The notes under the pieces are model-generated. The model did not search any database. It was not told the DNA's origin and saw nothing but the letters and a program-made list of their open reading frames with translations. Shown piece after piece: positions 37,909-61,172 of a stretch of 64,000 bases of DNA. The DNA is from an uncultured virus (IMG/VR IMGVR_UViG_2865217878_000004). Lineage: Duplodnaviria; Heunggongvirae; Uroviricota; Caudoviricetes. How positions within the stretch are numbered: position 1 is the stretch's first letter; every line of letters starts with the position of its first letter. A program made the translations under genes and the position numbers. The DNA is taken from the IMG/VR virus record IMGVR_UViG_2865217878_000004, one strand, 5' to 3'.

Positions 37909-40893
37909 TCACACCCCTGCGGCGCGGGCGATCTGTCCCTGAAGGTGCTGCGCGAGCACCATCGGGTCGGTCATGTTCGATCGCAGGTGCCAGTGGTTGG
38001 TGATCGTCGTGGGTCCGCCCACGCCTTGTCTGGCCAGAAGCTCCAGCAGACCGGACTGCTCGGCCAGTTCGAAGGCGCGGCGGGGCCGGGTGAGAGGGAT
38101 GACGACCTCGGGACCGGCCTCGCCGATCAGCGCCCGGGTGGGCGCGGTGACGATCGCGCCGGCCGCGAGACCAGGGATGAAGTCCAGCGCTCCCGAGACG
38201 GCCCCGGAGAACGCGTCAGCGAGCTGGCCTCCGATGTCCCCGATGGCGTCGAGGATCATCCCGGGCAGTTGACCGAACTCGGACACGATGTCCCCAATGA
38301 GTTCGCCGACTCCGTTGAGAACCGTGCCAGCGGCACCGGTGAAGACACCTGCGATGCGTGAGCCGACGTTCCCGATCTCATCCATGACGCCAGGGACCAG
38401 GCCGGCGAACCGGGAGATGATGTCCGCGACGAACCCGGCGACCGCACCGAGAACCATCCCGGGCAGTCCGAGGAACAGCCCGACAATGGCGGTGATCAGG
38501 TCAGGGATGATCGAGTTCCCGACCAACGTGTTATAGAGACGCTGGAAGAAACCGATGACCGATTCCACGAAGCTCGCGATCGGTTCCAGCAGACTGGTGA
38601 TAGCCGACAGCAGACCGCCGAGAGCAGCGATGATCCCTTCAAGGATCGGGACAACGACGGATGTGCGCAGCCAACCCATGATCGCCGCCGTGACCTGAAG
38701 GATCGGGTTGATCAGCGCGACGACGATCTGCACCAGCGGCGTGATGGTCTCGACCAGCAGCGTGACCAGCGACGCCAGTTGCGGCAGAACCGGAATCAGC
38801 GGGTTGATCGCGACCAGCAGGAGCTGCGTCAGGGTCGGGATCAGCGGGAGGAGAGCGACCAGCAGCTCGCCCAGCGCCGGGATCAACTCCTCCGCGATCG
38901 GCGGCAGAACCGCAAGAATCAGCGGCAGCAGCTCCCCGAATGCCACGGCGAGCTGCTCGCCGAGCATCTCCGCGACCGGCCCCAGCGCGACGGCGAGGTT
39001 GTCGAACGCCTCCGCAAGAACCGGGATCACCGGCTGCAAGCTGTCGGTCAGGACGCCGATCAGCGGTTCCAGCAGCGTGATCGCCAGCAGCAGCGCGTCC
39101 GCGAGGACACCGCCGAACACCCCGGCCAGCTCGCCTACCAGGGGCAGCAGCGGCGACAACGCCGTCAAAGCGGCGCCGATGGCCTCGCCCAGCGGCTCCA
39201 GCGCTGGCCCCAGCGCATCCAGCGCCAGTGCGAGCCCTTCCGCGACCGGCGTCAGTGCCTGGAGTACCGGCCCGAGCGCCCCGCCGAGCTCGGCGATGAG
39301 CCCTTGCAGCGCCGGGCCGATGGCCTGGAAGACCGGGACCAGCGCCGGGGCCAGCGTGCCGACCTGGCGTACCAGCTCGGTGAAGATCGGGCCGAGCGCC
39401 TGCCCGACCGCGTTCAGCCCCTGGAAGAGGCCGATGAGCGCCTGCGATCCCTCGGTGCTGTTGAAGAACGCGGCCAGATGGCCGGTCAGGCTCCCCAGAA
39501 CACCGAGCAGATCACCCCCTGTCGCCCCTGCCGCTTGGAAGACGCTCCGCAGAATGGAGCCGACATTTTGAAGAATCGTTCCTGCGGCTGAGAAGACATC
39601 AAGCGCTCCTCGAACCCATGCGATGGCCTGGTCACCGCTCGCGGCCGCATTGAGAAAATTCGCGAGGCGCGTATTCAGGCCGACAATGGCGTCTTGCGCA
39701 TCCTGGCCGAACTCCTCCGCGATGACCTGCCCCAGGCGGAGAAAACCCTCAACAACTGGGGCGATCGAGTCAGCCAGGCCGCGAGTGGCCTGCTGCGCGC
39801 CGCTGACGATCCCCTGGATCGCATCGACGCCCTGAGCGGTGGTCAGGAAGTCCGAGACGTTCCGTGCCGCCAGGCCGAAGCTGCCGGAAATCGACGACAG
39901 CTGGGCTTCCAGCGGACCGCCCAGCGCGGCGGCGAGCTCGGTGATCTCGCCTTCGAGCTGGCTGAAGAAGGCGTCCTGAACGCTGTTGCGCAGGCCCTCG
40001 AAGGCAGGGCGCAGCGCCCGGACTTCTCGGGCGGCGCTCTGGGCGGCGGGCGAAAGCTGTTCAAGGGATTGGGTGAACTCTTCGGAGGTGCCGGTCAGGG
40101 CGGCGGAGAAGGCGTCCGAGACCCCGGACAGAGCCAGTTGCAGCGCCGCGAACGCGGCCACCGAACCGCCGAGGACGGCGGGGAAGGCGGCCAGGATACC
40201 GGCTGCCGGGGCGAGCGCGGCGGTGAACTGCACCAGCGCCGCGGCACTGGCCGCGGCCTGGGCCACCAGGATCGACAGCCCCAGGCCGCGAGTGAGCAGA
40301 GAGCCGACGTTGCCCGCAGTGCTGCCCAGCGCTGACAGCGAGCGGGTCAGGGAGTCCGCATCCGCGGTCACCGGAACCGTGACCGACGGCGGACGGTGCG
40401 CCCGGATCGCGGCGTCGAACCCGGTCAGGTCCGGGGTGACGCGGACGCTCAGCGGCGGCAACCGGTTCAGGCCGCGCTGGAGATCCAGCCAGAACTGTGC
40501 GGGTGAGTCCGGGGTGACCTGGACACTCGCCGACAGACCTGCGAGAGCACCGTCGATGGAGCTGCGCAGCGCCGCGGTGTCGGCCTGGACATCGACCGTC
40601 GCGGTGATCCCGTCCAGGGCCGTCTCGATTGACTGCCGCAGCCCAGCCGTGTCCGCCTGGACACCGACCGTTGCGCTCAGTCGGTCGAGCGAGTCCTGGA
40701 TGTCGTCAGCGATCTGACGACCGGCCCGCTCACCAGTGGTCCGCAGCGCGCGGCGGATGGACGTATCCAGCGCTCTGCCGGCATCCCGCCCAGCGCTGGA
40801 CAGCTCAGTCCGCAGCTCCGCGCGGAACTGCGAGGTGTCGGCGACAACGAGGACCGAGGCGCGCCCGTACGGCGGTGTGGACACCTGGCGCAC
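37909..40893 (-). CDS. Tail tape measure protein
   Basis: 994 aa, Ala/Leu-rich amphipathic repeats, C-terminal IGEAGPEVVIPL. Confidence 0.95.
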   Translation of the reverse strand: MRQVSTPPYGRASVLVVADTSQFRAELRTELSSAGRDAGRALDTSIRRALRTTGERAGRQIADDIQDSLDRLSATVGVQADTAGLRQSIETALDGITATVDVQADTAALRSSIDGALAGLSASVQVTPDSPAQFWLDLQRGLNRLPPLSVRVTPDLTGFDAAIRAHRPPSVTVPVTADADSLTRSLSALGSTAGNVGSLLTRGLGLSILVAQAAASAAALVQFTAALAPAAGILAAFPAVLGGSVAAFAALQLALSGVSDAFSAALTGTSEEFTQSLEQLSPAAQSAAREVRALRPAFEGLRNSVQDAFFSQLEGEITELAAALGGPLEAQLSSISGSFGLAARNVSDFLTTAQGVDAIQGIVSGAQQATRGLADSIAPVVEGFLRLGQVIAEEFGQDAQDAIVGLNTRLANFLNAAASGDQAIAWVRGALDVFSAAGTILQNVGSILRSVFQAAGATGGDLLGVLGSLTGHLAAFFNSTEGSQALIGLFQGLNAVGQALGPIFTELVRQVGTLAPALVPVFQAIGPALQGLIAELGGALGPVLQALTPVAEGLALALDALGPALEPLGEAIGAALTALSPLLPLVGELAGVFGGVLADALLLAITLLEPLIGVLTDSLQPVIPVLAEAFDNLAVALGPVAEMLGEQLAVAFGELLPLILAVLPPIAEELIPALGELLVALLPLIPTLTQLLLVAINPLIPVLPQLASLVTLLVETITPLVQIVVALINPILQVTAAIMGWLRTSVVVPILEGIIAALGGLLSAITSLLEPIASFVESVIGFFQRLYNTLVGNSIIPDLITAIVGLFLGLPGMVLGAVAGFVADIISRFAGLVPGVMDEIGNVGSRIAGVFTGAAGTVLNGVGELIGDIVSEFGQLPGMILDAIGDIGGQLADAFSGAVSGALDFIPGLAAGAIVTAPTRALIGEAGPEVVIPLTRPRRAFELAEQSGLLELLARQGVGGPTTITNHWHLRSNMTDPMVLAQHLQGQIARAAGV

Positions 40894-41090: not shown

Positions 41091-42128
41091 CTACAGGCGC
41101 CGGATGCGCGGACGGAACAGACGTCTGCCGCGTTCGTGCACGGGAATGGCGAGGACCGCATGATGTGCGGATGGTCCGCCGAAGTAGGCCTGATTGGTTA
41201 CCAGGATCTTCTTGCCGAGGAAGGAAACACTGGCGGGAAGATCATAGGGAACATCCAGGCGATCGTTCTCGGCAGGGGTGGCGGGGATGCGAGTGATCTC
41301 CCGCCCTTCTGGACTAAGAACGAGTATGGCGTTGGCTAGAGCCAGCGCGACATAGATCTTTCCAGAACACCCGATTGCAAAGCCATCGGGTGTCTCCCCA
41401 ATATCCCCTTCCCAGAATATTTCGCGGCGCCCAGGATGCCCGTCACGACGTATCTCCAGAGTGTAGAGAAGTCCGTGAGCATTGGGGATCTCGCTGGGAT
41501 CGCGGAGTTCGTGGGCGGACTGCGCAAACAGCAGTGTGCGTCCGTGGTCGAGGAAGCGGATGCCGTTGGGGCCGAACAACGAACGCAGATCTGGTGCGGT
41601 GTACCACGCCTCAGCAGAACCGCCGCCAGGAGCTACACGCCAGATCATGCCCTGGGTAAGGTTTGTGACATACAGAGTGCCGTCAGGGGCGAAGACGAGA
41701 TCGTCCGGAACGGGCGGCTCATTGGCGGGGGTATCGGCGCTACCTCCGCTCGGGAGTTCGCTAGGACCAGGGGGAACCCCGGGAAGTTCAGCGTAGACGG
41801 ACTGTTTCCGGGTTCGAGGGTCCAGGGTAAGTATCCGTGAGGGTGCCCGATCGAGGATATACACGATGCCGTCGTGATCTACTGCCAGCCCGAGAATGCC
41901 CTGGCCAGTCGGGTTCTGCCCCTCAATGGTGAAGTCGGCAGTGATCTCACCGCGGCGATTGTAGGCGTAGAGGTGAGAGGGGACGTTGGGAAGACCTGAG
42001 GAGTCCTGGTGCGTTCCCACATAGACAACGTTGCGATGGATGGCGATCCCTTCCGGGTGACCCGGGAAAGGGACGTGACCGAAAACGTCGGTGCGGAATG
42101 AGGGGTGTCGCCGGAGGAAGGGGGACAT
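41091..42128 (-). CDS. SMP-30/gluconolactonase-like beta-propeller, copy B
   Basis: Clear paralogue of 31204-32280. Confidence 0.8.
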   Translation of the reverse strand: MSPFLRRHPSFRTDVFGHVPFPGHPEGIAIHRNVVYVGTHQDSSGLPNVPSHLYAYNRRGEITADFTIEGQNPTGQGILGLAVDHDGIVYILDRAPSRILTLDPRTRKQSVYAELPGVPPGPSELPSGGSADTPANEPPVPDDLVFAPDGTLYVTNLTQGMIWRVAPGGGSAEAWYTAPDLRSLFGPNGIRFLDHGRTLLFAQSAHELRDPSEIPNAHGLLYTLEIRRDGHPGRREIFWEGDIGETPDGFAIGCSGKIYVALALANAILVLSPEGREITRIPATPAENDRLDVPYDLPASVSFLGKKILVTNQAYFGGPSAHHAVLAIPVHERGRRLFRPRIRRL

Positions 42129-42166
42129 GCGGACCTCTTGGGCGTCGTTGCTGATCATTGATGCCC

Positions 42167-42213
42167 GGCCCACCAGCCAGCGGCTACCCGCGTAAAGGGT
42201 AGGCGCGTGTACG
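42167..42213 (-). promoter_or_regulatory. Phage-specific promoter motif plus downstream element before lactonase copy B
   Basis: CGTACACGCGCCTACCCT...AGCCGCTGGCTGGTGGGCC. Confidence 0.8.
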
Positions 42214-46533: not shown

Positions 46534-47109
46534 TCATGTCTGTCCATATTCGAGGAGTTGGGCTTCGAGGTCGGCGATGCGTTTCTCGGCGAATCGGAGG
46601 TTGGAGCGGGCGCCTTCGATCCGTTCCTGGAGCTTGCGGTGCTCCTGGGTGAGCTGGTGGATACGGTGCTTGAGGGTGGTGTTCTCGGTGGCCAGCTGCT
46701 GGACGGACTCGCCGGGGACCATCTGGTCGAAGTCGCGGATCTGTCCCATGAGCTCACCGATCCGCTGCCGCTGGGCGAAGACCTCGTTCTGGGTGCGGGT
46801 CAGCTCGGCCTCGGCGTTCAAGGCACGCTCCCGCCAGGACGCCTCGATCCGCTCGTGCTGTTCCTGCCCGAGACGGTCGCGCTGGCTGCGGCTATCGGCG
46901 AGTGCGGTCTTCACGATGGCGCGAGCGTCGGTGTTCTCGTAGAGGAACGTGGCGGACACCCCGGCTCGTTCGGCGATGGCGCGGACGGTCAGGCGTCCGC
47001 GTTCGCGGCGGAGCTGGCCGATAGCCTTCTCGACCTGGGCGAGCTTGGTCTGGGTCTGCTGGCGACGGGCTGCGATAGCGGCCCTGGTGGATTCGGGTCC
47101 GGAGCTCAT
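46534..47109 (-). CDS. tnpC: TnpC-like coiled-coil/HTH protein (DUF6262-like)
   Basis: TVRAIAERAGVSATFLY plus a coiled coil; ATGA-coupled to tnpB. Confidence 0.8.
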   Translation of the reverse strand: MSSGPESTRAAIAARRQQTQTKLAQVEKAIGQLRRERGRLTVRAIAERAGVSATFLYENTDARAIVKTALADSRSQRDRLGQEQHERIEASWRERALNAEAELTRTQNEVFAQRQRIGELMGQIRDFDQMVPGESVQQLATENTTLKHRIHQLTQEHRKLQERIEGARSNLRFAEKRIADLEAQLLEYGQT

Positions 47110-49700
47110 GCGGCTGTCCCAGTGTCCTCGCGGGCGAGTTCCTGGGCCCGGAACGCGGTGCTCCAAACGCGACCGAAGTAGTCCTGGGGCCGTCGCAGAT
47201 CGAGGGCGAGGGCTTCCTCGAGGAGGCCGACAGCTTCCAGTGCTCTTTCCAGGCCGGCGATTGCCTGAGCGGTGGGCTCGAAGGCCTCGTGCAGGTAGTC
47301 CGCGGTCGCGCTGTCCGGGGCCCGCTCTGCAAGGATCCGCCACTGCTCCCGTTTGCGGTGCCAGTAGACGAGGTCGGCGCCGGTCATGACGAACTTGTCG
47401 CAGCTGTGGCAGTTGAGCTTCCAGGGACATGCATCTCCGTCGACGACGGGCTGGAAGGTGCAGAAGCCTCCTTCGGCCGGTGTCGACTTGCGGGTGAGAT
47501 CGACCAGCATGGCTTCGGCTTCTTCCCTGGTCATGGGCTCGCCGGTGGTCAGCAAGGTTCCTGGTTCCGGGGTGCCCGGACCGGCGACCCAGATGGCGTT
47601 GAGGGCGTCGTTGAGCCGGGAATCGGTGTGGGCGAGATGGACGTAGTGCTCGGCCATTCGTTCGGAGACCTGGCCGAGGTAGCGCTTGACGTGAGTGAGG
47701 TCGGCGCCGTTGCGCAGGAGCTGGGTGGCCAGGGTGTGCCGCGTCTGGTGCGGGACGCAGTGTCCGATGTCGAGGGAGATCACCCATGTGCGGAAGAGGC
47801 GGTGGAACCATCCGTAGCTCACGCCCTTCAGGCATTCGCGGTTGGCGGTCCGCCGCGGGAAGAGCGCGATCTGCGACCTCTCCTCGGCGTTTGGCTCGTG
47901 CCCTTGCCGCTGGACGAAGCGGGCGATCGTGGTGGCCTGCCGTCGCTCGATGGTCTGGTAGAGGCGTTCGGGGATGCGGATCGCGGCGTCGAGGTTGCCG
48001 ACCTTCGTCTGGTCGTGCCAGAACAGCGGGACTCCGTTGTGGCGGCTGATGCAGTTCAAGCGGGCGTTGAGGACTTCCTTGCAGCGCCGGCCGGTGAAGA
48101 CGAGCGTCTCCCAGGCATCCCGCAGGCCCCTGTCGCCGGGATCGCCGGCCGCCAGGCGGGCCAGGTTGTCGGGGTGGGCGAGGGCACGGGCGACGTCGTC
48201 GGGGAAGGGACGCCGGCGCCCGGACTTGATGCCGCTGGTGGGGAGCGCGACAGTGAACGTGCGGTGCAGTCCGGCGCGTTCGGCCTCGCCCGACTCGAGT
48301 GCCTCTCGAAGGAGCTGGCGAAGGCCGTTGAGGAGCTGGCCGACGGACATTTTCGTCATCCTGGTCGGCTTCTGGCCACCTCTTCGGGTGGGGAAGGCGA
48401 GCGAGGGCAGTCCATGTTCGGCGCGGTGGCGCTGGTCGGTGAGGAAGTCGATCATGTGGTCCGCGGTCAGCAGCGTGGGGTCGTGACCGCCCTCCGGCGC
48501 CTGGGCCTCAAGGTAGGCACTCAGTTCCATGCAGCCGCGCCGTCTGGTCTCGAGGGGGTTCCGGCTGCGGGGAGGAGCCTTAACCAGTCGGTCTGCCAGA
48601 GACTCCCAGAGCAGGTCACGTAGCCAGCGCTGCGAGATGCCGCTGAGGTCGAAGAGGCCGTCGCATTCCTCGATTCGGACGCCGAAGTGCCCCAGATCGA
48701 TGAAGCCCGCGTCCTTGGTGTCCTGCCGGGTGAAGTAGATCAGGCGTAGATAGCGCAGCATCGTCTTCACGATCTTGCGTGAGACCTGTCGGCAGCGTCC
48801 GAGGTCGAGATCCGCCAGCGAGTCGGCCCCCTGCCGACGGCAGTCCTCCGCGACGTGCTGGAGCCACTGGACAGGCCACGGGTTGCCTTCCACGGGCATC
48901 TGCGTGTGCTGGAACATCGACCACTGGATCTCACGCTTCACCAGCGGACGCAGACGAAGCAGGCTCAGGCAGCCGTTCATCCGCGCGATCGGGCCGGTCT
49001 CGGTGCACCACCGCCGGAATCGGGCTTCATCGGTGTAGGTCACCGGGACGGGCTTGCCGAGGTCGGCCAGCCATCTGCCCCAGTTCTTCGGGAGATCGGC
49101 GCCGCCGGGCCGCCCCTCGCTCTTGTAGCGGTAGCGGTGCCGACTGCACAGCCCCAGAGGGCTCACGGCCTGGTCGGGACAGACATCGACCCGGCACTGG
49201 CCGAACGGCACGAATGCGGACTCGGAAGCCAACCACACGTCGAGTTCGGCAGGTTGTCCCTGCCGTTGCTGCCGCAGACGGTGCTGATACCAGCGGTCCA
49301 CGTGCAGCTTGCACAACCCGATCGAGCTGGCCGCCGGAATCCCCGGACAGATCAGACAGTCCGGCGGGTCGTGCCATGACACGGTCGGCAAAGGCCGGGC
49401 GTTTTGGAGGAAGGCGTTGAGCCCCTGGCCTTCCCGTTTCAGGTTCCGCCACTCGACATCATGGTTGAAGCAGAAGTCGGCCGTGGCCTCCCGTCCCCGT
49501 TGGCACTCCGGAACACCGCAGATCCATCCATAGACGGGATGGTCTCCGGGGACCTTGATGACGTCCGGGCGGAACAGCGGGTCGAAGGTGGGCGCGTCCA
49601 TCAAGGCGGTGAGGAGTTCCAACCGGTCCCGCGTGGTGCGTCCGTCCCGCCCGGGAACGATGACCGGCAAGGCCCGCAGTGCCGGTGCAGGGTGCGTCAT
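47106..49700 (-). CDS. tnpB: Large tyrosine recombinase (TnpB of Tn554 type)
   Basis: TGRR..E, HQTRHTLAT, YLGQVS..MAEHY; Cys/His-rich N-terminus. Confidence 0.88.
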   Translation of the reverse strand: MTHPAPALRALPVIVPGRDGRTTRDRLELLTALMDAPTFDPLFRPDVIKVPGDHPVYGWICGVPECQRGREATADFCFNHDVEWRNLKREGQGLNAFLQNARPLPTVSWHDPPDCLICPGIPAASSIGLCKLHVDRWYQHRLRQQRQGQPAELDVWLASESAFVPFGQCRVDVCPDQAVSPLGLCSRHRYRYKSEGRPGGADLPKNWGRWLADLGKPVPVTYTDEARFRRWCTETGPIARMNGCLSLLRLRPLVKREIQWSMFQHTQMPVEGNPWPVQWLQHVAEDCRRQGADSLADLDLGRCRQVSRKIVKTMLRYLRLIYFTRQDTKDAGFIDLGHFGVRIEECDGLFDLSGISQRWLRDLLWESLADRLVKAPPRSRNPLETRRRGCMELSAYLEAQAPEGGHDPTLLTADHMIDFLTDQRHRAEHGLPSLAFPTRRGGQKPTRMTKMSVGQLLNGLRQLLREALESGEAERAGLHRTFTVALPTSGIKSGRRRPFPDDVARALAHPDNLARLAAGDPGDRGLRDAWETLVFTGRRCKEVLNARLNCISRHNGVPLFWHDQTKVGNLDAAIRIPERLYQTIERRQATTIARFVQRQGHEPNAEERSQIALFPRRTANRECLKGVSYGWFHRLFRTWVISLDIGHCVPHQTRHTLATQLLRNGADLTHVKRYLGQVSERMAEHYVHLAHTDSRLNDALNAIWVAGPGTPEPGTLLTTGEPMTREEAEAMLVDLTRKSTPAEGGFCTFQPVVDGDACPWKLNCHSCDKFVMTGADLVYWHRKREQWRILAERAPDSATADYLHEAFEPTAQAIAGLERALEAVGLLEEALALDLRRPQDYFGRVWSTAFRAQELAREDTGTAA

Positions 49701-50893
49701 TCGTCCTCACCCCAGACGGCCTGGAGAGCAGCCGTGAACTCGGGCGAGTGCAGGTCGGGATGGCCGTAGACCTCATCGACCATCCTGGCCGACGCCCAGT
49801 TCCCGACGGCCTTGGCCACCATCGAGTCGCCGTTCGTGACGTCCAGCACGTCGTTGGTGATCTGGTGGCGAAACGCCTTGGGCGTGATCCTCCCGGGCAG
49901 CCCGGCCCTACGGCCGGCCCGGCGCAGCATCCCCCGGGCGGCATCCGCGCTCCAGGGCTCTCCACGGTTCGGGCCGGCCAGCTGGATCAGCAGCATCCCG
50001 TGCCCCGTGGCGTACGCCGCGTACTCCGTCGTCATGTACTTGAAGTAGCTGCTGATCATGGCGGGGCTGGCGCGGTAGATCTCCCCGCCGGTGATCACCC
50101 CGTCGACCGCCTTCCAGTCCGGCTTGATCTTCGCGGCGGCCCGATTCGGGTTGCCCCAGCGATGACAGACATGCAGGTGAGGGCTCTTGCATTCGCCGCA
50201 GGCCGCGTTCTCCCGCAGGTGCAGGTCCATCAGGTGTAGCCCAGCCAGCCCGCCCGGTCGCAGGCTTGTGTCCGACAGCCACTGCAGGACCATCTCGTCG
50301 CGGGCCGTGTTCAGCACGCCTCGCAACTCCTCCTTGGCCCCGTCCGGCAGCATCTTCGGGTGCCGACGACGCGGCGGCCGCTTCGGAGCCAACGGGTTGG
50401 CCGCCATCGACGTCTTCACGTGCCCCAACAGAGCCCGGTCCCGGTCCACCCTCGTCGGCAGCCGAGTGACCGCAAGGGCCTCCCTCAGCTCATTGTTCAC
50501 GCCCTTGCTGGCGCACGCGTTGAGGTAGAAGCCCTTGAGACATGCCGCCGCGACCTGGAGAGCCGAGGCGCCGTACGGACGTTGAGGAGGCACCCGCCAC
50601 GGCTGCCCGTAGGGCATCGGCACGTGGGCACCCACCGCCCCCATGTAGCGGTGCAGGTCACTCATCGTGATCGTCTCGGTGGTCAGCCCCTCCCGGATCC
50701 GCCACCGCAAGTGATCCACCAACGAGTAGGCGTACGTCTTCTGCGACCCCGACCCTTCGAACGGCCGCAGATACGAGTCCGCCTCCGCGTCGACCGTGCA
50801 GTCCGGCCCCACGATCGTGTACGACCTGCCACCACCAGCCCTCTCGAGCACCTGCACCCGCAGGTCCCCGAGGACCACTCGACTACGTGCCAC
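49697..50893 (-). CDS. tnpA: Tyrosine recombinase (TnpA of Tn554 type)
   Basis: TSLRPG, TPKAFRH, VGNWAS...VYGH. Confidence 0.85.
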   Translation of the reverse strand: MARSRVVLGDLRVQVLERAGGGRSYTIVGPDCTVDAEADSYLRPFEGSGSQKTYAYSLVDHLRWRIREGLTTETITMSDLHRYMGAVGAHVPMPYGQPWRVPPQRPYGASALQVAAACLKGFYLNACASKGVNNELREALAVTRLPTRVDRDRALLGHVKTSMAANPLAPKRPPRRRHPKMLPDGAKEELRGVLNTARDEMVLQWLSDTSLRPGGLAGLHLMDLHLRENAACGECKSPHLHVCHRWGNPNRAAAKIKPDWKAVDGVITGGEIYRASPAMISSYFKYMTTEYAAYATGHGMLLIQLAGPNRGEPWSADAARGMLRRAGRRAGLPGRITPKAFRHQITNDVLDVTNGDSMVAKAVGNWASARMVDEVYGHPDLHSPEFTAALQAVWGEDE

Positions 50894-51844: not shown

Positions 51845-52264
51845 TCAATCCCGCCGCACTGGCCACGGCGAGGCGGCGAGAAGGCCGTCCATCAGGAAGG
51901 GCCGTGGGCGTTGACCTTCCACCTGCCGCGCGAAGACACGTTCGCCGCTGCCCAAGTCCCGCCAGGTCAACACCTGCCGTCGAACGGGGCGTATCGGTCG
52001 TCGGCGCGGCCCATACACACCGGTCCCCTCATGAACGTACCGCGCGTAGTCCAGGTCGCTGAACACCTCACCCAGCACTTCTCCCGGTCGGTCGGTGATC
52101 TCGGACTGGATGCTGGCACGGAGCGGGCCGTTGCCTGGACAGCGCGCGCGTGCGGAGGCTTCGACCGCCTCGGTGACCTCTCGAACCATGGTGCCGACCC
52201 AGCCTGCTGCGGACAGTTCACGGTCGATCACGCCGTTGTCCAGCTCGATGCGGATCTCGCTCAT
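51845..52264 (-). CDS. HK97 gp10-like neck/tail-completion protein
   Basis: G.LRASI...YARYVHEGT...RPRPFL. Confidence 0.8.
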   Translation of the reverse strand: MSEIRIELDNGVIDRELSAAGWVGTMVREVTEAVEASARARCPGNGPLRASIQSEITDRPGEVLGEVFSDLDYARYVHEGTGVYGPRRRPIRPVRRQVLTWRDLGSGERVFARQVEGQRPRPFLMDGLLAASPWPVRRD

Positions 52265-52375: not shown

Positions 52376-52915
52376 CTACGCCTCGACGGTGATCGTCAGC
52401 AGGACTCCGGCGCAGCCACCTTGGGGGCCAAGGGGGCGTTCGGTGTCGGGTTCGACGGTCACGTCCTGCAGGGCTGAGCAGCAGGCCACCGCTTCGCGGA
52501 GCAGGCGGGCGTCGGCGAGGAAGCCCCAGAACTCGGCCGCGCGCTGCTGGCAGTCCGGGGCTGATTGGCCGTCCGGGGCGGTGACGGCGACGCAGCGGGT
52601 CACGCCGAGTTCGATTACGTGGCGTCCGCGCCAGGACAGGCAGCCGCGGGAGGTGCGCCGGTTTCCGGCGAGGTCGGCGACCGGGTCGCGGCGGATCCAG
52701 CGCACCCATGCCTGTCCGTGGCCGCCGTCGCAGTCGCAGCCGCACCAGTCCAGGGCGGGGAGGCGTTCGCCCCAGGTGAGGCAGCAGGAGCAGACCGGCC
52801 GTTCGGCTGCGGTCAGCGTTGCGCACAGACAGGCGTGCAGGCCGGACAGGATCGGGCCGAGGAGCGGGTCGGCGTCCGGGGGCAGGAGAGGCTCGTGCTC
52901 GACTGGCTGGGTCAT
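52376..52915 (-). CDS. Tail terminator-like structural protein
   Basis: Cys-rich; ELGVTRC...GPQGGCAG; position in the neck module. Confidence 0.65.
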   Translation of the reverse strand: MTQPVEHEPLLPPDADPLLGPILSGLHACLCATLTAAERPVCSCCLTWGERLPALDWCGCDCDGGHGQAWVRWIRRDPVADLAGNRRTSRGCLSWRGRHVIELGVTRCVAVTAPDGQSAPDCQQRAAEFWGFLADARLLREAVACCSALQDVTVEPDTERPLGPQGGCAGVLLTITVEA

Positions 52916-53730
52916 CGCTTGGCTCCTGGGGGATAGCGACGCGACAGGGGCGCTGGGGGAAGGTCGAGGGAGTAGACGGCCGGGCGTTGCTGGCCGGGGG
53001 TGGGGTTGACCAGTTGGACCCAGGAGTAGATGTGCGGCATGTGGGTGCGCAGCGTCTCGGCCCAGTCCCCGTCCGGCACGATGTCGTAGGTCACGCCCTC
53101 GCGCTGAACGGTGCGCACGCCGCGCGGCAACGCACAGCCGGTGGCGCCTGGGGTGCACGCTTTGTCGATCTCGCAGGCAAGGCGGCCGACCGCGCGGCGT
53201 CCGCCGATGGGCACCTCGAGGCCGCGCAGGTAGGTGACGGAAAGCGTTCCCGGGGCGGTGTCCGGCAGCGTGAGGTCCTGGTGGTGCGGCCAGCACGCCC
53301 CGTCCGTACGTGCGAGGAGCGCGCCGACCGCCCGAGGAAGCACGGCGTAGGCGGTGGTTGGCAACTCAGTGCCGGCGTGGCGTACGGCGAGCACGCTGTG
53401 CACCGGCCCGTGCAGGTAGATGGCGCAGCGGGGGGTGCACCCGCATCGCGTCTGTCCGCAGCCGCAGGGCGTCTCGCCCCAGTGCCCGGCGCCGAGCCCG
53501 GGAGACGTCCTGCCGGGGGATGACGCCGCGCACCGGATGCCGCAGGGGCGTTCGACCTCCTCGCACAACCCGTATCGCCCTCCGGTCAGCCGCCAGAGCA
53601 CGTCGGTGGCCTCCTGCACGGCCGCGAGGTGATCCTCGGTCCACTCCCCGGGGTCGTCCGGCCAGCCGGGGCAGCAGGACGGATCGACCGGCCACGGGGC
53701 GCAGGGACCGTCCTGCACCTGATCCGGCAT
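52912..53730 (-). CDS. Head-to-tail adaptor
   Basis: A..VLW.LTG.RYG.C...RP, LACE..K, C.LP..V..VQREGV. Confidence 0.75.
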   Translation of the reverse strand: MPDQVQDGPCAPWPVDPSCCPGWPDDPGEWTEDHLAAVQEATDVLWRLTGGRYGLCEEVERPCGIRCAASSPGRTSPGLGAGHWGETPCGCGQTRCGCTPRCAIYLHGPVHSVLAVRHAGTELPTTAYAVLPRAVGALLARTDGACWPHHQDLTLPDTAPGTLSVTYLRGLEVPIGGRRAVGRLACEIDKACTPGATGCALPRGVRTVQREGVTYDIVPDGDWAETLRTHMPHIYSWVQLVNPTPGQQRPAVYSLDLPPAPLSRRYPPGAKR

Positions 53731-53791
53731 GGCTCTCTCCATCTATGTCTGCGGTTCGGCCGGCACCGAGTGGTGCCGGCCGAACCGGCAG

Positions 53792-54595
53792 CTACTTCGG
53801 CTCCGTCTCCTTCTTCTCCGGGCTGCTGGCGCGTCTCGGCTCGGAGCGGCGTGCCGACGCCTGCGGCCGCGGCTGCGACTGTGGCGGCGGGGTCTGCTGG
53901 CCCGGAGGCGGGGACTGGGGCTGCTCAGGTTCCGGCTCGGGAGCGGGCGGAGCCGGGGGCTGCGGCTCCTCGTTCCCGTCCTGGTCGGGGGCTGCGGTAG
54001 CGATGGTGATGGGCACCGTCGCAGCGGTGAGCACGCGTGCCGAGCCGTGGCCGACCGCGCCCTGGACGCTGAACTCGTAGGTGGTGTCCGGCTCCAGGCG
54101 GCGGATCGGCACGACGCGTTCGTAGCCGCGCAGTTCCTTCTTCAGCCAGTCGTGCTCGGGCTCGTCCTCGGTGGCCTGGGCCCGGTAGCGCAGCACCCAG
54201 CCGTCCGGCTCGGTACGCTCCTGTGAGTTTCCCGAGTAGTCCCAGGCGATGACGATGGTGTCGGTGGTCGGCTCGCCCTTGGCGCCGAGGCCCTCGACGA
54301 CCATGTCGTACTCGATGCCGTGATCCGGGTGGATCCCGTCCACCTCGAAGACGGTCGGCTCCACCCAGACCATGCGGTCGATGCCGGGCTCGATCGGCTG
54401 TGAACCCTCGGCGAGGACGAGGTCGCCGTGGTCGCCCGCGAACACCTCGGCCGGGATGTGGACGTAGGAGACCGGGTTGCCGATGTGGTACCGGATGCGG
54501 CTGCGGTCTTCCTGCGCCCACCACATCACCCGCTGGAGCACGGCCGCTCGGGTGTCGGGATGGACGACGAGGTAGGTACCGGTCATACGGGGCAT
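53792..54595 (-). CDS. Structural protein with FN3-like domain and Pro-rich tail
   Basis: IAWD...LRYR...LEPDTTYEFSVQ. Confidence 0.65.
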   Translation of the reverse strand: MPRMTGTYLVVHPDTRAAVLQRVMWWAQEDRSRIRYHIGNPVSYVHIPAEVFAGDHGDLVLAEGSQPIEPGIDRMVWVEPTVFEVDGIHPDHGIEYDMVVEGLGAKGEPTTDTIVIAWDYSGNSQERTEPDGWVLRYRAQATEDEPEHDWLKKELRGYERVVPIRRLEPDTTYEFSVQGAVGHGSARVLTAATVPITIATAAPDQDGNEEPQPPAPPAPEPEPEQPQSPPPGQQTPPPQSQPRPQASARRSEPRRASSPEKKETEPK

Positions 54596-54598
54596 GGG

Positions 54599-56401
54599 CT
54601 ATCGCCTCCTTGGCCGACTCGACCGGCGGCTGCGCGGCGCGGCGGCTGGCAGCGGGATGGTGACCTGCTGCTCGGTGCAGCGCGCCGGCTCGGCCCCGGA
54701 CACGCAGACGGTGACGGTGTGCGCGCCGGGGGCCAGGACCTGTTCCGCGGTGACGCCGCTGGCCGGGACGTCCACGACCGGCTGGTCATCCCACTGGATC
54801 GTGTAGGTCTCGCTGTCGGTCACGGTCACCGTGATCACAGCTGAGTTCGCCGCCTGGCCGGGGGCGACGGTGAACTGCGGGCCGGTTCCCGGCTGCTGAC
54901 CGCCCGGGGTGAACGTGGTGCTCGCGATCACGGCCAGGTCGGCGGTCGAGGTCGCCGTGATCGTCTGGTCGCCGGAGATGTTCTCGTCGTAGGCGTGGGT
55001 GGACTGCGTCTGCCCGGCGGGAACGACAGTGACCGGCGTGCCGTCGCCCCAGTCCACCTCGATGTCCGCCTCCGCCGGGAACCCGGTGAGGGTGATCAGC
55101 GCGGTGCGGCCGGTGGCATCGGACGGGTCGGCCTCCGCAGTCAGGGTCGGCTCCGGGGGCTCCTGACCGCCGCCCGGGGTGAACGTGGCGCTGGCTGTCA
55201 CGGACGGGTCGGCCTGGCTGGTGACCGTGATCGCCACCTCGCCGGTGACGCTCTCGGCGAAGGCGTGGGTCGCCTCAGCCGTGCCGGCCGGCAGCGACTC
55301 CGGCTGTGTGCCGTCGCCCCAGTCCACCGTCAGCGCGTCCGCGGCCGGGAATCCGGAGAGGGTGATCAGCGCGGTGCGGCCGGTGGCGTCCGCCGGGTCG
55401 GCCTCCGCAGTCACCGTCGGCTCGGCGGGAGCCCCCTCACCGGGGGTGAAGGCGGCGTTGGCCCGAAGCTGTGGGTCCGTCTCGGAGGTGAGGGTGATGG
55501 TCACCGTCCCCGTGACGTCCTGTGCGTAGGCGTAGGTGAGTTCCCCCTCGGCCGGGTGCCCGGTCTCCGGAGCCGTGCCGTCGCCCCAGTCGATCGCCAC
55601 CGTGCTGTCGGCGGGGAAGCCGCTGTAGGACAGGAGCGCGGTGCGGCCGGTGGGGTCGCTGGCGTCGGCGGTTGCCTGGGCGGTTGGCTCCGTCCCGCCG
55701 CCGTCGAACGGCACGGTGACCTGCTGGCTCGTGGTGCGGGAGGCGTCGACCGTGTCGGTGGCGGTAACGGCGTAGTCGCCCGGGGTGGTGAACGCGTGAC
55801 CGGTGGGCGTCTGCCCGTCGCCGGGGTTGGTCTGCGGCTCGGTGCCGTCGCCGAAGTCGACCAGCGCCTGATTGCCCTGGTTGTCGATCAGCGCGTTCAC
55901 CGACATCCCGGTGGTGTCGGCGGTGTCCTCCTCGATGGTGAGCGTGATGTCGGCGACCTCGCCGAACGGCACGGTCACCTGAGCGGTGCCGGTGCGGGTG
56001 GTGTCGTCGGCGTCCCTGGCGGTGACGGTGTAGTCGCCGGGGGCCGCGTACGGGTGGGGCGTCGCCTCCTGGCCGTCACCGGAGTTGGACCCTGCGGGGG
56101 TGCCGTCGCCGAAGTCCAGGGTCACGGGGCCCTGGCCTCGGTTGTCCACGGTGATGGAGGCGGTCATGCGCGAGGCGTCGGTGGTGTCCTCGCCGGCGGT
56201 GACCTCCATCTCCTCCGGCTCGCCCCCGACGTCGAAGGGCAGGGTGAACGTGACTTCGGTGCGCGCCTGGGGGTTGTCGGCGTCGGCGACGACGGCGGTC
56301 TTCGCCCCGGGGGTGGCGTACTGGTGGGAGACCTGCCCCTGCTCGGGGCCGTTCTCCACCGGGCTGCCGTCGCCCCAGTCGATCGTGGTCGGTCCAGCCA
56401 T
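54599..56401 (-). CDS. PKD/Ig-repeat virion decoration protein
   Basis: Six D(W/F)GDG repeats plus one degenerate repeat; own AAGGAG RBS; starts mid-domain. Confidence 0.88.
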   Translation of the reverse strand: MAGPTTIDWGDGSPVENGPEQGQVSHQYATPGAKTAVVADADNPQARTEVTFTLPFDVGGEPEEMEVTAGEDTTDASRMTASITVDNRGQGPVTLDFGDGTPAGSNSGDGQEATPHPYAAPGDYTVTARDADDTTRTGTAQVTVPFGEVADITLTIEEDTADTTGMSVNALIDNQGNQALVDFGDGTEPQTNPGDGQTPTGHAFTTPGDYAVTATDTVDASRTTSQQVTVPFDGGGTEPTAQATADASDPTGRTALLSYSGFPADSTVAIDWGDGTAPETGHPAEGELTYAYAQDVTGTVTITLTSETDPQLRANAAFTPGEGAPAEPTVTAEADPADATGRTALITLSGFPAADALTVDWGDGTQPESLPAGTAEATHAFAESVTGEVAITVTSQADPSVTASATFTPGGGQEPPEPTLTAEADPSDATGRTALITLTGFPAEADIEVDWGDGTPVTVVPAGQTQSTHAYDENISGDQTITATSTADLAVIASTTFTPGGQQPGTGPQFTVAPGQAANSAVITVTVTDSETYTIQWDDQPVVDVPASGVTAEQVLAPGAHTVTVCVSGAEPARCTEQQVTIPLPAAAPRSRRSSRPRRR

Positions 56402-56416
56402 GGCGATTCTTCTCCT

Positions 56417-58078
56417 TCAGGCCGTGGTGGCGTTGTCGATGTCGAGCTGTATGGTCATGCCGCTGGGATCGGAGGTGTCCGCTCCTGCGGTGGCCTGCGG
56501 CTCGGTGGGCTGCCCGGCGCCGGTGTTGTCGATGTCGAGCTGGACCGTCATGCCGCTGGGGTCGGACGGGTCGGCGGCGGCGGTCACCTGCGGGCCCGGC
56601 TCGTCTTGGCCGAGAGGCACGGTGACCGGCAGCTCGACGGCCGCGGTGGGCTCGGCGACCGAGGCGACACGGATGGTGTAGTCGCCCTGGGCGGTGTAGG
56701 CGTGCTCGGCGGTGCCGGACTCGGGCACCTGCTGCACCGGGGTGCCGTCGCCCCAGTCGATCGCCACCAGGCCGTTGCCGGTGTTGTCGTAAGTGACAAC
56801 GGCGGTCATGCCGGTCGGGTCGTCCGGGTCGGCTTCGACCTCGGCGGCGGGCGCCTGGGCGACGGGTACGCGGATGGCCTCGCGGGTGCGGTAGGTGGGC
56901 AGGTCTCCGCGCCGGGCGGCCACGTAGTAGATGTTCGGGAACTGGTAGGTGTGCAGGACAGAGACGGTGCCTGCCGCGCTGACCGTGACCTCCTCGGCGG
57001 CGGTGCCGTCGCCCCAGTCGACGGTGGCGGTGCGGTTGGCGTGCGAGGGCAGGCCGATGGTCGCGGTGATCTCGAAGGGGTTGTCGGGGTTGTCGCCGCT
57101 GAGGGTGAGGGTGGGTTCGTCGGCCGGCAGCGGGATCGTCACGGACCGAGTGGCGGTGACTACCGGGGTCTGGGCGTCCGCGACGGTGATCGGGTACTCG
57201 CCGTCCCCTTCGTAGGTGTGGGTGACCCAGGTGCCGTCGGCAACCTGCTGCGGCTCGGAACCGTCCGCCCAGGTCACCAGCACGGGGCCGAGGCCATGGT
57301 TGTCCGCCCGCAGTCGGACGGTGCGGCGCGGCGTCTCGTTGACGACGCCGGTGACGTACAGGTCGGCCGGGTCGGGCACGGGACGGTCCACCGGCAGGCA
57401 CTCGGTCTCCGGCTCCGGCGGACGCAGCGTGGTGACGGGGATGAGACGGCGGTGCTTGGTGGGCGGCATCGGCTGAGGCAGCGGACCGGGAACTCCGTTG
57501 GCGTCCGCCCAGACCTGGTAGGGACCGCGTCGCCAGCCGTTCGGGGCGCGGGTCGTCCCAGTGAACGTGGTGGTCAGCGCAGCGTTCGCCACTTCGAGAT
57601 CGCCTTCGGAGGCGCCGACCACGCGGGGGTAGAGCAGGTAGCCCCAGCGTCCTTGTGCGACGCTGCCGGTGCACACATCGTCTTCGGAGCTGACCGCCAT
57701 CCACAGCTCCAGTGCGAATCCGACCTCATTGGTCGACAGGCCCGAGCTGTCGCCGGTGTCGTAGCCGATGATCTCCTCGCCGTCGTGGACCAGCTCGACG
57801 CTCGGGTCGATGATCTGGGCGAGCACCGGGTTGACCGCACACAGCACGATCTCCAGCTCGTAGTGGGAGAATGTGTTGGTGGCGGGGATGTTCAGGCAGG
57901 TCCCGCCGTCAGCGGCGGGCTGGGATATCTCTTCACCCTCAGTGAACTGCGCGCTCTGCGAGACGCTGACGAAACCGCGGGTGACGATCTGGCCGCACTC
58001 GCCGTAGACGGGGCGGCCACACACATCAAGCCTGGTAAAACGGGCGACGAGGCCACGGTAGAGACGTGCCTCAGGCAT
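56417..58078 (-). CDS. Major tail protein with C-terminal PKD domains
   Basis: R.TRLD.CG, GFALELW, W.RGPY.V tube domain followed by three W(A/G)DG repeats. Confidence 0.85.
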   Translation of the reverse strand: MPEARLYRGLVARFTRLDVCGRPVYGECGQIVTRGFVSVSQSAQFTEGEEISQPAADGGTCLNIPATNTFSHYELEIVLCAVNPVLAQIIDPSVELVHDGEEIIGYDTGDSSGLSTNEVGFALELWMAVSSEDDVCTGSVAQGRWGYLLYPRVVGASEGDLEVANAALTTTFTGTTRAPNGWRRGPYQVWADANGVPGPLPQPMPPTKHRRLIPVTTLRPPEPETECLPVDRPVPDPADLYVTGVVNETPRRTVRLRADNHGLGPVLVTWADGSEPQQVADGTWVTHTYEGDGEYPITVADAQTPVVTATRSVTIPLPADEPTLTLSGDNPDNPFEITATIGLPSHANRTATVDWGDGTAAEEVTVSAAGTVSVLHTYQFPNIYYVAARRGDLPTYRTREAIRVPVAQAPAAEVEADPDDPTGMTAVVTYDNTGNGLVAIDWGDGTPVQQVPESGTAEHAYTAQGDYTIRVASVAEPTAAVELPVTVPLGQDEPGPQVTAAADPSDPSGMTVQLDIDNTGAGQPTEPQATAGADTSDPSGMTIQLDIDNATTA

Positions 58079-58261
58079 GACGTACTCCTTCATTGAGGGC
58101 CGTGGTGAGCGGCAGCGGGCGGAGGTCGTTCTCCGGGGTGGTGCGGCCGCGAGTCGTCAACCTCCGGCCCAAGAGGGGAGCTGTCCGAGGGCCCGGGAGG
58201 GGTGGGTGGGTTGCGGATCTACCGGCTGTTCGAGGAGCCGGCAGGCTCTTGAGGGCCGCCA

Positions 58262-59086
58262 TCACCACTCACTGCTTCCGGAGGGAAGCTGGAGAAGGAC
58301 GGCTGCGGCGTAGCAGTCGGCGTCCAACGCGTAGGTGCGCTCCGCGATTGCGATACGGGTGTTGGTTTCCGGGGTGACGGCCTGGTGGGCGAAGGGGGCG
58401 CTGCGGCGTGCGGTGACGGTGCCGGTGGCGATCAGCCAGCACCGTCCCGAGACGGGGTCCGGCTCGGCGGGTTCTGAGGGGTCGTCGAAGTAGCCGCCCC
58501 CGAACGCGATGCGGCTGCCGAGCTCGGTTCGCATCATCGGTCCGTTCGGCGTCACCTGCCGCGCCGCCGCGAAGTGCGGCTGCGTCCAGCGAGGAGCGTG
58601 AACGGTAGGCCGCCCGGCATAGTGCAGGGCCGCGTCAGCCTCCAACGCCCCGAGTGCGGTCAGAAGCGGAACCGGCTCGGTGCCCAGGGGAAGCCGCGGG
58701 TCAACATCGGCGATCTGAAGCGAGAAGACGCGCTCCACCTCGCGCGGTTCGATCAGATGCAGGCGGCGCAACGCGGTGCCCTCGGGGTCAGCGAAACCGA
58801 CCGTCGAGCACTCCAGCCGCGTGTAGACCGTGAACGGTCCGCCGCCGTTGACCCAGGTCACCCCCTCGGCCTCAGGCTTGTCGTGGCTGGTGCCTCCGGG
58901 CGCGGGCTGCGGGCGGGAACCGATCACGTGCCCGCCTTGCGCACAGGCATCGGTGGCGTAGGTGACGCCGTCGAGCTGCCAGCGGCCGTCCTCGGTGATG
59001 ACCCGAGCCACGCTGAGCAGGCCGTAGGTGTAGGTCTCAAGGGGCGGCGGGTCGACTTCCACACTTCCCGGGACCGGGATCGTCAT
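58262..59086 (-). CDS. Second capsid protein (pentamer-type)
   Basis: YGLLS, RW..G, PFTVY...C, AERTY; directly follows the major capsid gene. Confidence 0.65.
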   Translation of the reverse strand: MTIPVPGSVEVDPPPLETYTYGLLSVARVITEDGRWQLDGVTYATDACAQGGHVIGSRPQPAPGGTSHDKPEAEGVTWVNGGGPFTVYTRLECSTVGFADPEGTALRRLHLIEPREVERVFSLQIADVDPRLPLGTEPVPLLTALGALEADAALHYAGRPTVHAPRWTQPHFAAARQVTPNGPMMRTELGSRIAFGGGYFDDPSEPAEPDPVSGRCWLIATGTVTARRSAPFAHQAVTPETNTRIAIAERTYALDADCYAAAVLLQLPSGSSEW

Positions 59087-59198
59087 TGCGTCTCCAGATG
59101 GGTCCAGCGAGGCGGCCCGGAGCTGGGTGACGGAGCCGAGCAGCACAAGGGAAGAAAGGTGCGCTCGCGCAGCTCCGAGCCGCTGGATTGAGAAGAAG

Positions 59199-61082
59199 TC
59201 AGGCCGCCAGGGCGGGGACAGGAGCGGGGGCGGCGTAGGTGACCGACTGGAAGGCGCCGGACAGGCCGTTGGCGAACAGCGGGATCGTCAGGGCGTAGGA
59301 GGTGCCGCCTCGAATGCAGACCTGGACGCCTTCTTCCGTGAAAAGGCTGGTGAAAACGTTGTGCGTGAGACCGTCGTGGTCGTACACCCCGTCCAGCGAG
59401 ATCACATCTGCCTGCAGGCGGAAGAACGTGCCGGCCGGGTACAACAGCACGCGCACTTCGGTCGGCCACGCGGTGTGCACCAGACGGCCACCGAATCCCG
59501 CCTCATCGCCGTCGGCGTAAGCGTCCTGCCAGTCGTACACCCACTGCGGCGCCACCCCGGCGTTGCGGAGGTAGGCGTCGAGCTGCTGATCAGAGATGGA
59601 CCAGCGGTTGTCGATGCCGGCCTTCTTCCTCAAGTCGCTCTTCAAGATCCCTTTCAACCACAGCGGTGCGATGAGTTCCAGCGTCGCGTTCGGCGCCAGC
59701 CGCTCGCGGTAGCGCTGCTGCATGACCTGGTGCTCCAGAATCGACAGCACCGACTCCACCGCGCCCGGTCCGTGCAGATCCACGACTGCCGCCTGAGGGT
59801 CCGGGGTACCCACTGCAGGGAGGGCGACCGGCCTGGACAATGCCTCCATCCGCGCGAGCTGCCAGGCGTTCATCTTGTGGCTGTGCACCGCGAGCGCGCC
59901 TTCGGTGAAGCGCGCGATGCGCTCCGGCCACCCGCGCTGGGTCAGGATCGGCGTACGCAGGCACACCCCGTCCGCATCCAGGCGGCACTCGACAAAGTCG
60001 TCATCGCACGGGACTTCCAAGCACGCTTTGCTCTCTCCCGCGACAGCCTGGGCCTCGGTCTGATGGAAGCCGACACTGCCCCAAATTTCGGCCCAGTCGA
60101 ACTCGGCCGGGTATCTCAGCCCACCACGGGTTGCGGTCAGCGTCGGCAGATCCACCATGCCCTGATCGGTGATACGCAGCTCGGTCAGGTCGTAGAGGGT
60201 GAGGCTGGGCGCACACCAGCCGCCGGCCGCGACCAGTGAGCCGCCCTCCAGCCGCGACTCGTCCGTGACGAAGTCGATCTTCGAAAGGCCCTCGTCATGG
60301 TTGGTCGGGTCCAGGACAGTGACCTCGTCCGGGGAGGCGCGGATCAGGCGCGCGACTGGGATCTGCTGCCGGTCCCGGCTGCGTGAGTTGATCAGCGGCC
60401 TCAGCCGTTCCTCCCACACCGAGCCAAAGGCCCCCAGGGTCTCCAGGCGTTGCCCGGCGGTTACCTGCCGACCGCCGCCGCCAGTTACATCGGCCGAGGC
60501 GATCAGGGTGTAGGAGTCCTGCCAGGACTCGGCGTCGTCCGGCTGCTGGGGCGGCGGCGTGGAACGCAGCCCCAGCGGGACACGAGGCGGTGCCGAAATC
60601 GGCACTCGGCCGGAAGAGACGGAGAGTTCCGCACCCGCTGCGGCAGGCTGCGGGTCGGAGGGACCTGCCGGAGCGGAGGTACCGGTCGCGTCAGCCTCAG
60701 CGGAAGGGGCCTCCGGTTGAGCTACCGGCTCCGGACCGGTCGGTTCCAGCTCCGGATCGGCAGCAGGCTCCGAGGGAGGCGGGGGCGCGAGGGCCTGGAT
60801 GCGGGCCTGGGCGTCCGCTATCCGCTGTACGCGCTCCTCGACAGCAGCGGTGTACTCGTGAACGCCGTCAGCGACGCGGGCCAGTGTCTCCAGGGAGTCC
60901 ACCGCAGCGTCGTTGACCAGGCTGTCCTCGACGGTGGCCTCGTTGAAGCGGGCGTGGATGTCCGCCGTCAGAGCGACGAGATCGAGATCGGCTGCCTCGG
61001 CCAAAGCGGAGCGGATGATGTCGGCGTGCTGCTCGACCGGTTCATCAGCGAGCCTGGCCAGCAGGTTGTCGAGGAAGCTCAC
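59199..61082 (-). CDS. Major capsid (hexamer) protein with N-terminal scaffold-like region
   Basis: LVAAGGWCAPS..YD, RGG, K.C.EVPC, WPE, LFTEEG. Confidence 0.88.
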   Translation of the reverse strand: MSFLDNLLARLADEPVEQHADIIRSALAEAADLDLVALTADIHARFNEATVEDSLVNDAAVDSLETLARVADGVHEYTAAVEERVQRIADAQARIQALAPPPPSEPAADPELEPTGPEPVAQPEAPSAEADATGTSAPAGPSDPQPAAAGAELSVSSGRVPISAPPRVPLGLRSTPPPQQPDDAESWQDSYTLIASADVTGGGGRQVTAGQRLETLGAFGSVWEERLRPLINSRSRDRQQIPVARLIRASPDEVTVLDPTNHDEGLSKIDFVTDESRLEGGSLVAAGGWCAPSLTLYDLTELRITDQGMVDLPTLTATRGGLRYPAEFDWAEIWGSVGFHQTEAQAVAGESKACLEVPCDDDFVECRLDADGVCLRTPILTQRGWPERIARFTEGALAVHSHKMNAWQLARMEALSRPVALPAVGTPDPQAAVVDLHGPGAVESVLSILEHQVMQQRYRERLAPNATLELIAPLWLKGILKSDLRKKAGIDNRWSISDQQLDAYLRNAGVAPQWVYDWQDAYADGDEAGFGGRLVHTAWPTEVRVLLYPAGTFFRLQADVISLDGVYDHDGLTHNVFTSLFTEEGVQVCIRGGTSYALTIPLFANGLSGAFQSVTYAAPAPVPALAA

Positions 61083-61117
61083 GCGAGCCCCTTTCGCAGG
61101 GGTGTCGTCGAGCTCTC

Positions 61118-61172
61118 GGCCCACCAGCCAGCAGAGCAGAGGTCGTGGCTGGGAAGGGTAGGCGCGTGTACG
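61118..61172 (-). promoter_or_regulatory. Phage-specific promoter motif plus downstream element before the capsid gene
   Basis: CGTACACGCGCCTACCCT...GCTGGCTGGTGGGCC. Confidence 0.8.

Follow-up and report, generated by a model that had tools for sequence, protein, structure and literature searches.

A PKD domain divided between a tail protein and its neighbour: a probable split-domain docking system for tail decoration in Streptomyces-type prophages

The locus and its divided domain

The DNA described here is a stretch of 64,000 nucleotides from an uncultured virus of the Caudoviricetes (IMG/VR record IMGVR_UViG_2865217878_000004), referred to below in its full length as the window, with a G+C content of 67.8%. 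The genes under study all lie on its minus strand, where the structural module of a prophage of the Streptomyces type is located; the gene coordinates given below are on this strand. Two adjacent genes of the module form the subject of this analysis: that of the major tail protein (MTP; 56417..58093, 558 amino acids, family phrog_792) and, immediately downstream, that of a protein made of PKD repeats (54599..56401, 600 amino acids, Pfam PKD_4), called the partner in the following. A PKD domain, of immunoglobulin (Ig)-like type, is split between the two, with orphan copies of its first part at the end of the MTP and its second part at the beginning of the partner.

The MTP is composed of a tube domain, three PKD-like domains and two orphan N-terminal parts of a PKD domain, the tags. 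It matches the phrog_792 profile "major tail protein" with an E value of 6.3e-70 (residues 6-366 on profile positions 3-319 of 350), and in Pfam it scores 31.2 bits for PKD (cut-off 23.5) and 28.1 bits for PKD_4 (cut-off 27). A family profile of 86 positions was built from 29 complete PKD domains of the tail-protein/partner family, and no other open reading frame (ORF) of the window contains a PKD domain by this profile. The C-terminus of the MTP reads ...ADPSDPSGMTVQLDIDN-TGAGQPTEPQATAG-ADTSDPSGMTIQLDIDN-ATTA-stop. Its last complete PKD domain (residues 417-495; 56609..56845) covers family profile positions 2-83 with 84 bits and has a Pfam PKD_4 match over 3-66. Tag 1 follows (residues 502-527; 56513..56590) and corresponds to strands A-B, at profile positions 1-27 with 18 bits; the rest of the domain does not follow it. 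Tag 2 (residues 534-554; 56432..56494) reaches from profile position 2 to 22 with 11 bits, and only ATTA and the stop codon come after it. Neither tag has a Pfam PKD match. At the DNA level, the tags are encoded by a repeat (56429-56500 and 56522-56593) with 82% identity over 72 nt and a spacing of 93 nt.

The partner opens with MAGPTTIDWGDG, a half-domain of strands C to G only (residues 3-55; 56237..56395), which lies on family profile positions 27-81. In Pfam, residues 8-48 are matched to PKD_4 positions 40-76 of 85 with 18.4 bits, below the cut-off, which means that the domain lacks its N-terminal part. Taken singly, the tags and the half-domain are fragments, none of which covers most of the PKD profile. 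Behind the half-domain stand five complete PKD domains (residues 66-503; 54893..56206), each matching family profile positions 1 to 81 or 85 with 73-120 bits, then one diverged beta domain and a basic C-terminal tail, PRSRRSSRPRRR (54602..54637), which resembles the tail that ends fused MTP-PKD relatives. The protein as a whole is above the curated Pfam cut-offs for both PKD_4 (51.7 bits) and PKD (31.1 bits).

At the junction, the minus strand reads GCC TGA AGG AGA AGA ATC GCC ATG GCT. The TGA stop of the MTP (56417-56419) is followed by a spacer of 15 nt, AGGAGAAGAATCGCC (56402..56416), which is in frame with both genes and contains a Shine-Dalgarno-like AGGAGA before the ATG of the partner. 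The initial annotation had described a tail protein that ends in two tandem first-half copies, the repeat of 93-bp period behind them, a next gene that opens with the missing second half, and in-frame genes separated by a TGA and 15 nt with a ribosome-binding site. The profile and repeat coordinates above bear out each of these observations.

The complementary break in related loci

The comparison with relatives was based on 90 loci from 8 genomes, 23 metagenomes and 59 viral contigs. Two of them, L024 and L028, were left out as their MTP runs off the contig, giving 88 loci and, with the window, 89 rows, in which tags and half-starts were classified by the family profile. Tags, one or two in each case, are found in 31 of the 89 rows. 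Removal of the duplicates L029, L032, L042, L045, L046, L048 and L052 leaves 24 distinct tagged loci, ten of which have a single tag; their MTPs are just 30-61% identical to that of the window. Each of the 31 tagged rows has a following ORF that reaches profile position 26-30 at its residue 2-5 and matches up to about position 81. Among the 58 untagged rows, 5 are without usable downstream DNA, and none of the 53 that have a next ORF shows a half-start. The complementary break is far beyond chance. Conservation of the split in related prophages, which the initial annotation had put up for checking, is thus given (31 of 31 tagged rows, 24 of them distinct, versus 0 of 53 untagged ones), and the profile coordinates of the divided PKD/Ig-like domain are complementary in all 24 distinct loci, the window included.

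Uninterrupted forms of the same proteins exist as well. When the C-termini of 94 MTP homologues were compared, many diverged MTPs ended in one to three tags and others in a complete domain. In P0011 (681 amino acids) and P0021 (506 amino acids), the MTP core is directly continued by complete PKD domains of the same subtype as in the partner, and the protein ends in a basic C-terminal tail of the partner's kind. P0057 contains in uninterrupted form the domain divided in the distant clade, followed by two more orphan tags, and P0059 has three orphan tags at its end and then a short basic tail. Going by P0011, P0021 and P0057, some lineages have the domain intact, and in others the B-C loop is the site of the cut. 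Uninterrupted relatives are therefore only some of the homologues, and the possibility raised at the outset that all of them might be single ORFs is contradicted by the split in 24 distinct loci.

The tags are under purifying selection. Across five clades, the ratio of nonsynonymous to synonymous substitution rates (dN/dS), calculated from all within-clade pairs, which are not independent of each other, is 0.22-0.40 in the tag region, 0.14-0.43 in the half-domain and 0.06-0.30 in the rest of the MTP. An aspartate, a glycine and a threonine of the tag occur without exception in an alignment of 22 sequences, and its strand retains an alternating hydrophobic pattern, which is that of a buried strand B. 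The two tags within a locus have a similarity of 0.55-0.81 in 12 of 13 loci, the exception being L041 with 0.29, compared with 0.36-0.67 between loci. In the MSGPVT clade, the differences between tag 1 and tag 2 are each maintained.

A tree was calculated from residues 1-330 of 44 MTPs, comprising the 24 tagged ones and 20 untagged closer relatives (L054 and L056-L090 were left out). The tag state changes six times on this tree, at least three of these changes being forced by well-supported branches, and tag and half-start always occur together.

One group of loci (L026, L027, L029 and L030) has a cysteine-rich variant of the arrangement, in which cysteines flank the tags. The MTP of this group extends 13 residues beyond tag 2 and overlaps the start of the partner by 16 nt. 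With 174 amino acids, this partner is short, and it is cysteine-rich too.

Structure models and readings of the split

The tag region and the half-domain were modelled with AlphaFold2 as a read-through product, that is, as a single chain of 134 residues with the natural spacer as linker, from an alignment of 39 rows (A4) that L023 entered as two separate rows because of its second in-frame stop. The predicted local distance difference test score (pLDDT) of this model is 64 on average, with 69-89 in the half-domain, 59-66 in tag 2 and about 50 in tag 1, whose strands are placed at model residues 10-15 and 25-30. Model residues 36-128, which comprise tag 2 and the half-domain, align with 4l9d_B (Z 8.7, rmsd 2.4, 78 of 81 residues) and with 6aem_A (Z 8.6, 80 of 84), both of them whole solved PKD domains. 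As the half-domain has only about 56 residues, tag 2 must provide the remainder of the aligned fold. FN3 domains score nearly as high as PKD domains against the model (Z 7.3-8.1). As modelled, tag 2 and the half-domain are compatible with one PKD fold. A second AlphaFold2 model, of partner residues 1-150, has a pLDDT of 82 and shows four strands in the first domain and seven in the second.

The arrangement is probably a natural split-domain docking system for tail decoration, as judged from the sequences and models together. Two polypeptides would be made from tightly coupled genes that are joined by a stop, a Shine-Dalgarno motif and an ATG: the MTP would be released at the stop, and a fraction of the ribosomes would restart 15 nt downstream to produce the partner. 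One PKD domain would be cut in its B-C loop, with the tags of the MTP as strands A-B and the partner continuing from strand C, and the half-domain of the partner could not form a complete sandwich alone. The A-B hairpin of a tag would then enter the half-domain in trans and complete the sandwich; one or both tags of an MTP may be occupied in this way. This docking would tie a chain of six further beta domains and a basic tail to the outside of each decorated tube subunit, which would place the PKD chain on the tail, where chain and basic tail may have an adhesive role. Decoration would presumably be partial and governed by the efficiency of re-initiation, by analogy with SPP1, in which the decorated form is sub-stoichiometric at 3:1 (PMC8718954).

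A more specific form of this proposal can be advanced only tentatively, with not quite even prospects. It describes a portable tag-and-catcher, in which a hairpin tag of about 21 residues (strands A-B), present in one to three copies per tube subunit, would capture a long PKD adhesin by its half-domain. How densely the tail is decorated would be set by the tag number and by how efficiently translation stops and restarts, and tags and partner would form one cassette that moves between prophages and exchanges with fused versions.

Several points weigh against the docking system. In the most distant clade, named MTVTIQWD after the first residues of its partner proteins, profile scores are low (tags 8-13 bits, half-start 7-12 bits); the alignments of this clade do display the matching pattern of tag and half-start. 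Among the isolated phages of the phage collection, none has the split arrangement. The partner finds only single PKD domains there, in five Streptomyces phages, and an apparent match of both genes in phage Tank turned out to be a trivial overlap. In the read-through model, which is a single chain, the confidence of the tags is moderate at best and tag 1 lies outside the fold. In addition, the lone half-domain is modelled with a pLDDT of 84-92, which means that AlphaFold2 gives no sign that a tag is needed, but such a high score is in itself no evidence that the half-domain folds alone. The MTP is a putative tube protein, its name being based on family annotation alone. Finally, the prophage of the window may be defective, as recombinase genes lie within its tail module.

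It is unlikely, albeit conceivable, that the split involves no complementation of folds. The tags would then serve, for example, as a C-terminal arm on neighbouring tube subunits, and the half-domain of the partner would be stable alone and bound elsewhere or not at all. This would agree with the confident model of the lone half-domain next to tags at just 50-66, with known C-terminal arms of tail tube proteins such as 80alpha gp53 (PMC8718954), and with P0059, where three tags lead into a basic tail. However, it leaves unexplained why tags always come with an exactly complementary partner start and never without one, and why tag and partner have been gained or lost jointly at least three times. 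The hydrophobic alternation of a buried strand B and the purifying selection on the tags also speak against it, and from general knowledge of the PKD fold, the loss of strands A and B would leave the core of a sandwich exposed.

There is also a rather small probability that the phrog_792 protein is not the tube protein here and is, for instance, the base of a head or neck fibre, in which case docking would decorate another part of the virion. Its gene lies between the capsid and head-tail adaptor genes, away from the tape measure, and its N-terminal part has no useful sequence match among solved structures. An equally odd placement is nevertheless found in curated isolated phages, which annotate only the phrog_792 family as major tail protein. 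In a tblastn search with the MTP, 855 phage records matched, over the N-terminal part only among the isolated phages, and the annotation is major tail protein in the best 30 of the 855. In Microbacterium phage Gazebo, the homologue follows the capsid gene and precedes the adaptor as in the window, and is the sole annotated major tail protein in the stretch examined. Within the window, no other scanned ORF matches a major-tail-protein family.

Recoding, in which some ribosomes read through the TGA, shift frame or hop to produce a covalent fusion of MTP and PKD chain like gp17.1* of SPP1, is very improbable. In its favour, SPP1 is an established case of a frameshift that adds an Ig-like domain to an MTP (PMC8718954), the window and five other distinct tagged loci have both ORFs in one frame, and the single-chain read-through model folds. 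In the remaining 18 of the 24 distinct tagged loci, however, the partner is out of frame with the MTP: relative to the stop, its frame is 0 in 6, +1 in 12 and +2 in 6. The stop codon is TGA in 10, TAG in 10 and TAA in 4, and L023 (6621-6638), likewise L045, has a tandem TAG TAA between the tagged MTP and the partner, directly followed by a Shine-Dalgarno motif. The gap between the genes ranges from -16 to +86 nt and is mostly 9-16 nt. Its lower extreme is the 16-nt overlap of the L026 group, and its upper extreme is L012 (1636-1724), where a one-tag MTP and its half-domain partner are 86 nt apart and the spacer contains a G+C-rich inverted repeat. Going by L012, tight coupling of the two genes is not required.

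Each of the 24 distinct partners has its own ATG with a Shine-Dalgarno-like motif 3-12 nt ahead of it, often overlapping the stop (TAGGAGG, TGAGGAG), which rejects a recoded extension without a start of its own of the gp17.1* type. The spacer of the window would be read as three rare arginine codons; AGA and AGG together make up 14 of the 245 arginine codons in nine genes of the element. A hop of the ribosome from the GCC before the stop to the GCT after the ATG was likewise rejected, because the codons match only in the window, L001, L003 and L004, four closely related loci among the 24. Because of these frames, stops, individual starts, rare codons and scarce hop codons, readthrough, frameshifting or hopping is not the general mechanism, and the evidence of starts, frames and tandem stops instead favours two polypeptides, as first proposed. 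A trace of readthrough may occur in the window itself. The earlier objection that readthrough leaves one half-domain unpaired also holds, since a fusion leaves tag 1 without a partner.

Decay, that is, a gene broken by a nonsense mutation with a chance ATG behind it in a dead prophage, finds some support in the recombinase genes within the tail module of the window copy but is of negligible probability, and a recent nonsense mutation is rejected, given a split that recurs in 24 distinct loci of five clades with MTPs as diverged as stated above and with selection on both its sides.

Known systems and the remaining module

The docking system would share its principle with several known assemblies. 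In chaperone-usher pili, an incomplete Ig-like fold is completed by a strand of another polypeptide: the missing C-terminal G strand comes from the N-terminal extension of the subunit that follows, and the process involves a chaperone and an usher. In the window, by contrast, it is the N-terminal strands A-B that are missing (profile position 1 to about 26), and the donor would be a C-terminal tag of a different protein. No match to chaperone or usher families was seen among the neighbouring ORFs that were scanned, without a systematic search having been made. In the engineered SpyTag/SpyCatcher pair, a truncated Ig-like domain likewise rebuilds one fold together with a short peptide tag, and this fold is locked by an isopeptide bond. 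Unlike this pair, the split in the window is natural and gives no indication of a covalent bond. TasA fibres resemble the proposed system in that another polypeptide supplies the strand completing a beta-sandwich (PMC9674648).

Among phages, Ig-like domains on tail tube proteins belong to textbook knowledge, both those encoded in cis and those that a frameshift adds (PMC8718954). The likeness to gpV of lambda, pb6 of T5, the tube protein of YSD1 and gp17.1* of SPP1 lies in an Ig-like beta-sandwich that is attached to the tube protein at its C-terminus and points outward. In these phages the domain is part of one polypeptide, whereas in the window it would be a separate gene product, with the junction inside the domain. 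A split domain that is completed by two tail proteins is known from the nozzle of the Pseudomonas podophage A1002, as determined by cryo-electron microscopy: beta-strands of one of the proteins gp39 and gp42 fill the missing blades of the other, and relatives have a single protein instead (PMC13730344). In the window, too, neighbouring genes hold complementary portions of one domain, and relatives (P0011, P0021 and P0057) have this domain undivided. In A1002, however, the split concerns the core beta-propeller of the nozzle in one phage with a cryo-electron microscopy structure, while here it concerns an accessory PKD domain with one to three tags, in many loci and known from sequence. In the literature covered, which excludes most subscription journals, no description was found of a tail tube protein whose orphan strand tags would serve an Ig-like chain from a separate gene, the A1002 nozzle being the nearest case.

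If the docking system is real, it would be a third way to hang Ig-like domains on tails, besides making them part of the tube protein and adding them by programmed frameshift. It would explain how a plain tube can be built first and a bulky adhesin of 600 residues added afterwards in adjustable amounts. It would also provide a natural, non-covalent pair of peptide tag and half-domain in many diverged versions, which would be attractive for phage display and protein assembly.

The structural module around the two genes begins with a portal/protease fragment (from 63999 downward), followed by the major head protein (59199-61124, phrog_777), which is long with 641 amino acids. Its phrog_777 match begins at residue 38, behind an N-terminal part rich in alanine, proline and glutamate that may be a built-in scaffold. 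A phrog_779 protein (58262-59146) stands between it and the MTP. Directly after the partner lies the gene of a protein of 267 amino acids (53792-54595) with a weak FN3 match of 24.2 bits, slightly below the cut-off of 25, and a C-terminal tail that is proline-rich and basic. In the distant clade, the partner proteins carry FN3-like sequence at their own ends. The head-tail adaptor (52912-53742) and Neck1 (51845-52264) come next, and the tape measure gene (37909-40893) is located much further on, with minor tail proteins behind it.

Between the neck gene and the tail genes, a consecutive row (46534-50893) consists of two tyrosine-recombinase genes (398 and 864 amino acids, Phage_integrase) and the gene of a DUF6262 protein (433 amino acids). 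This row looks like a mobile element inserted in the structural module. Just upstream of the tape measure gene, an unusual place for it, there is a gene (41091-42173) for a protein of 360 amino acids with SGL/NHL beta-propeller matches.

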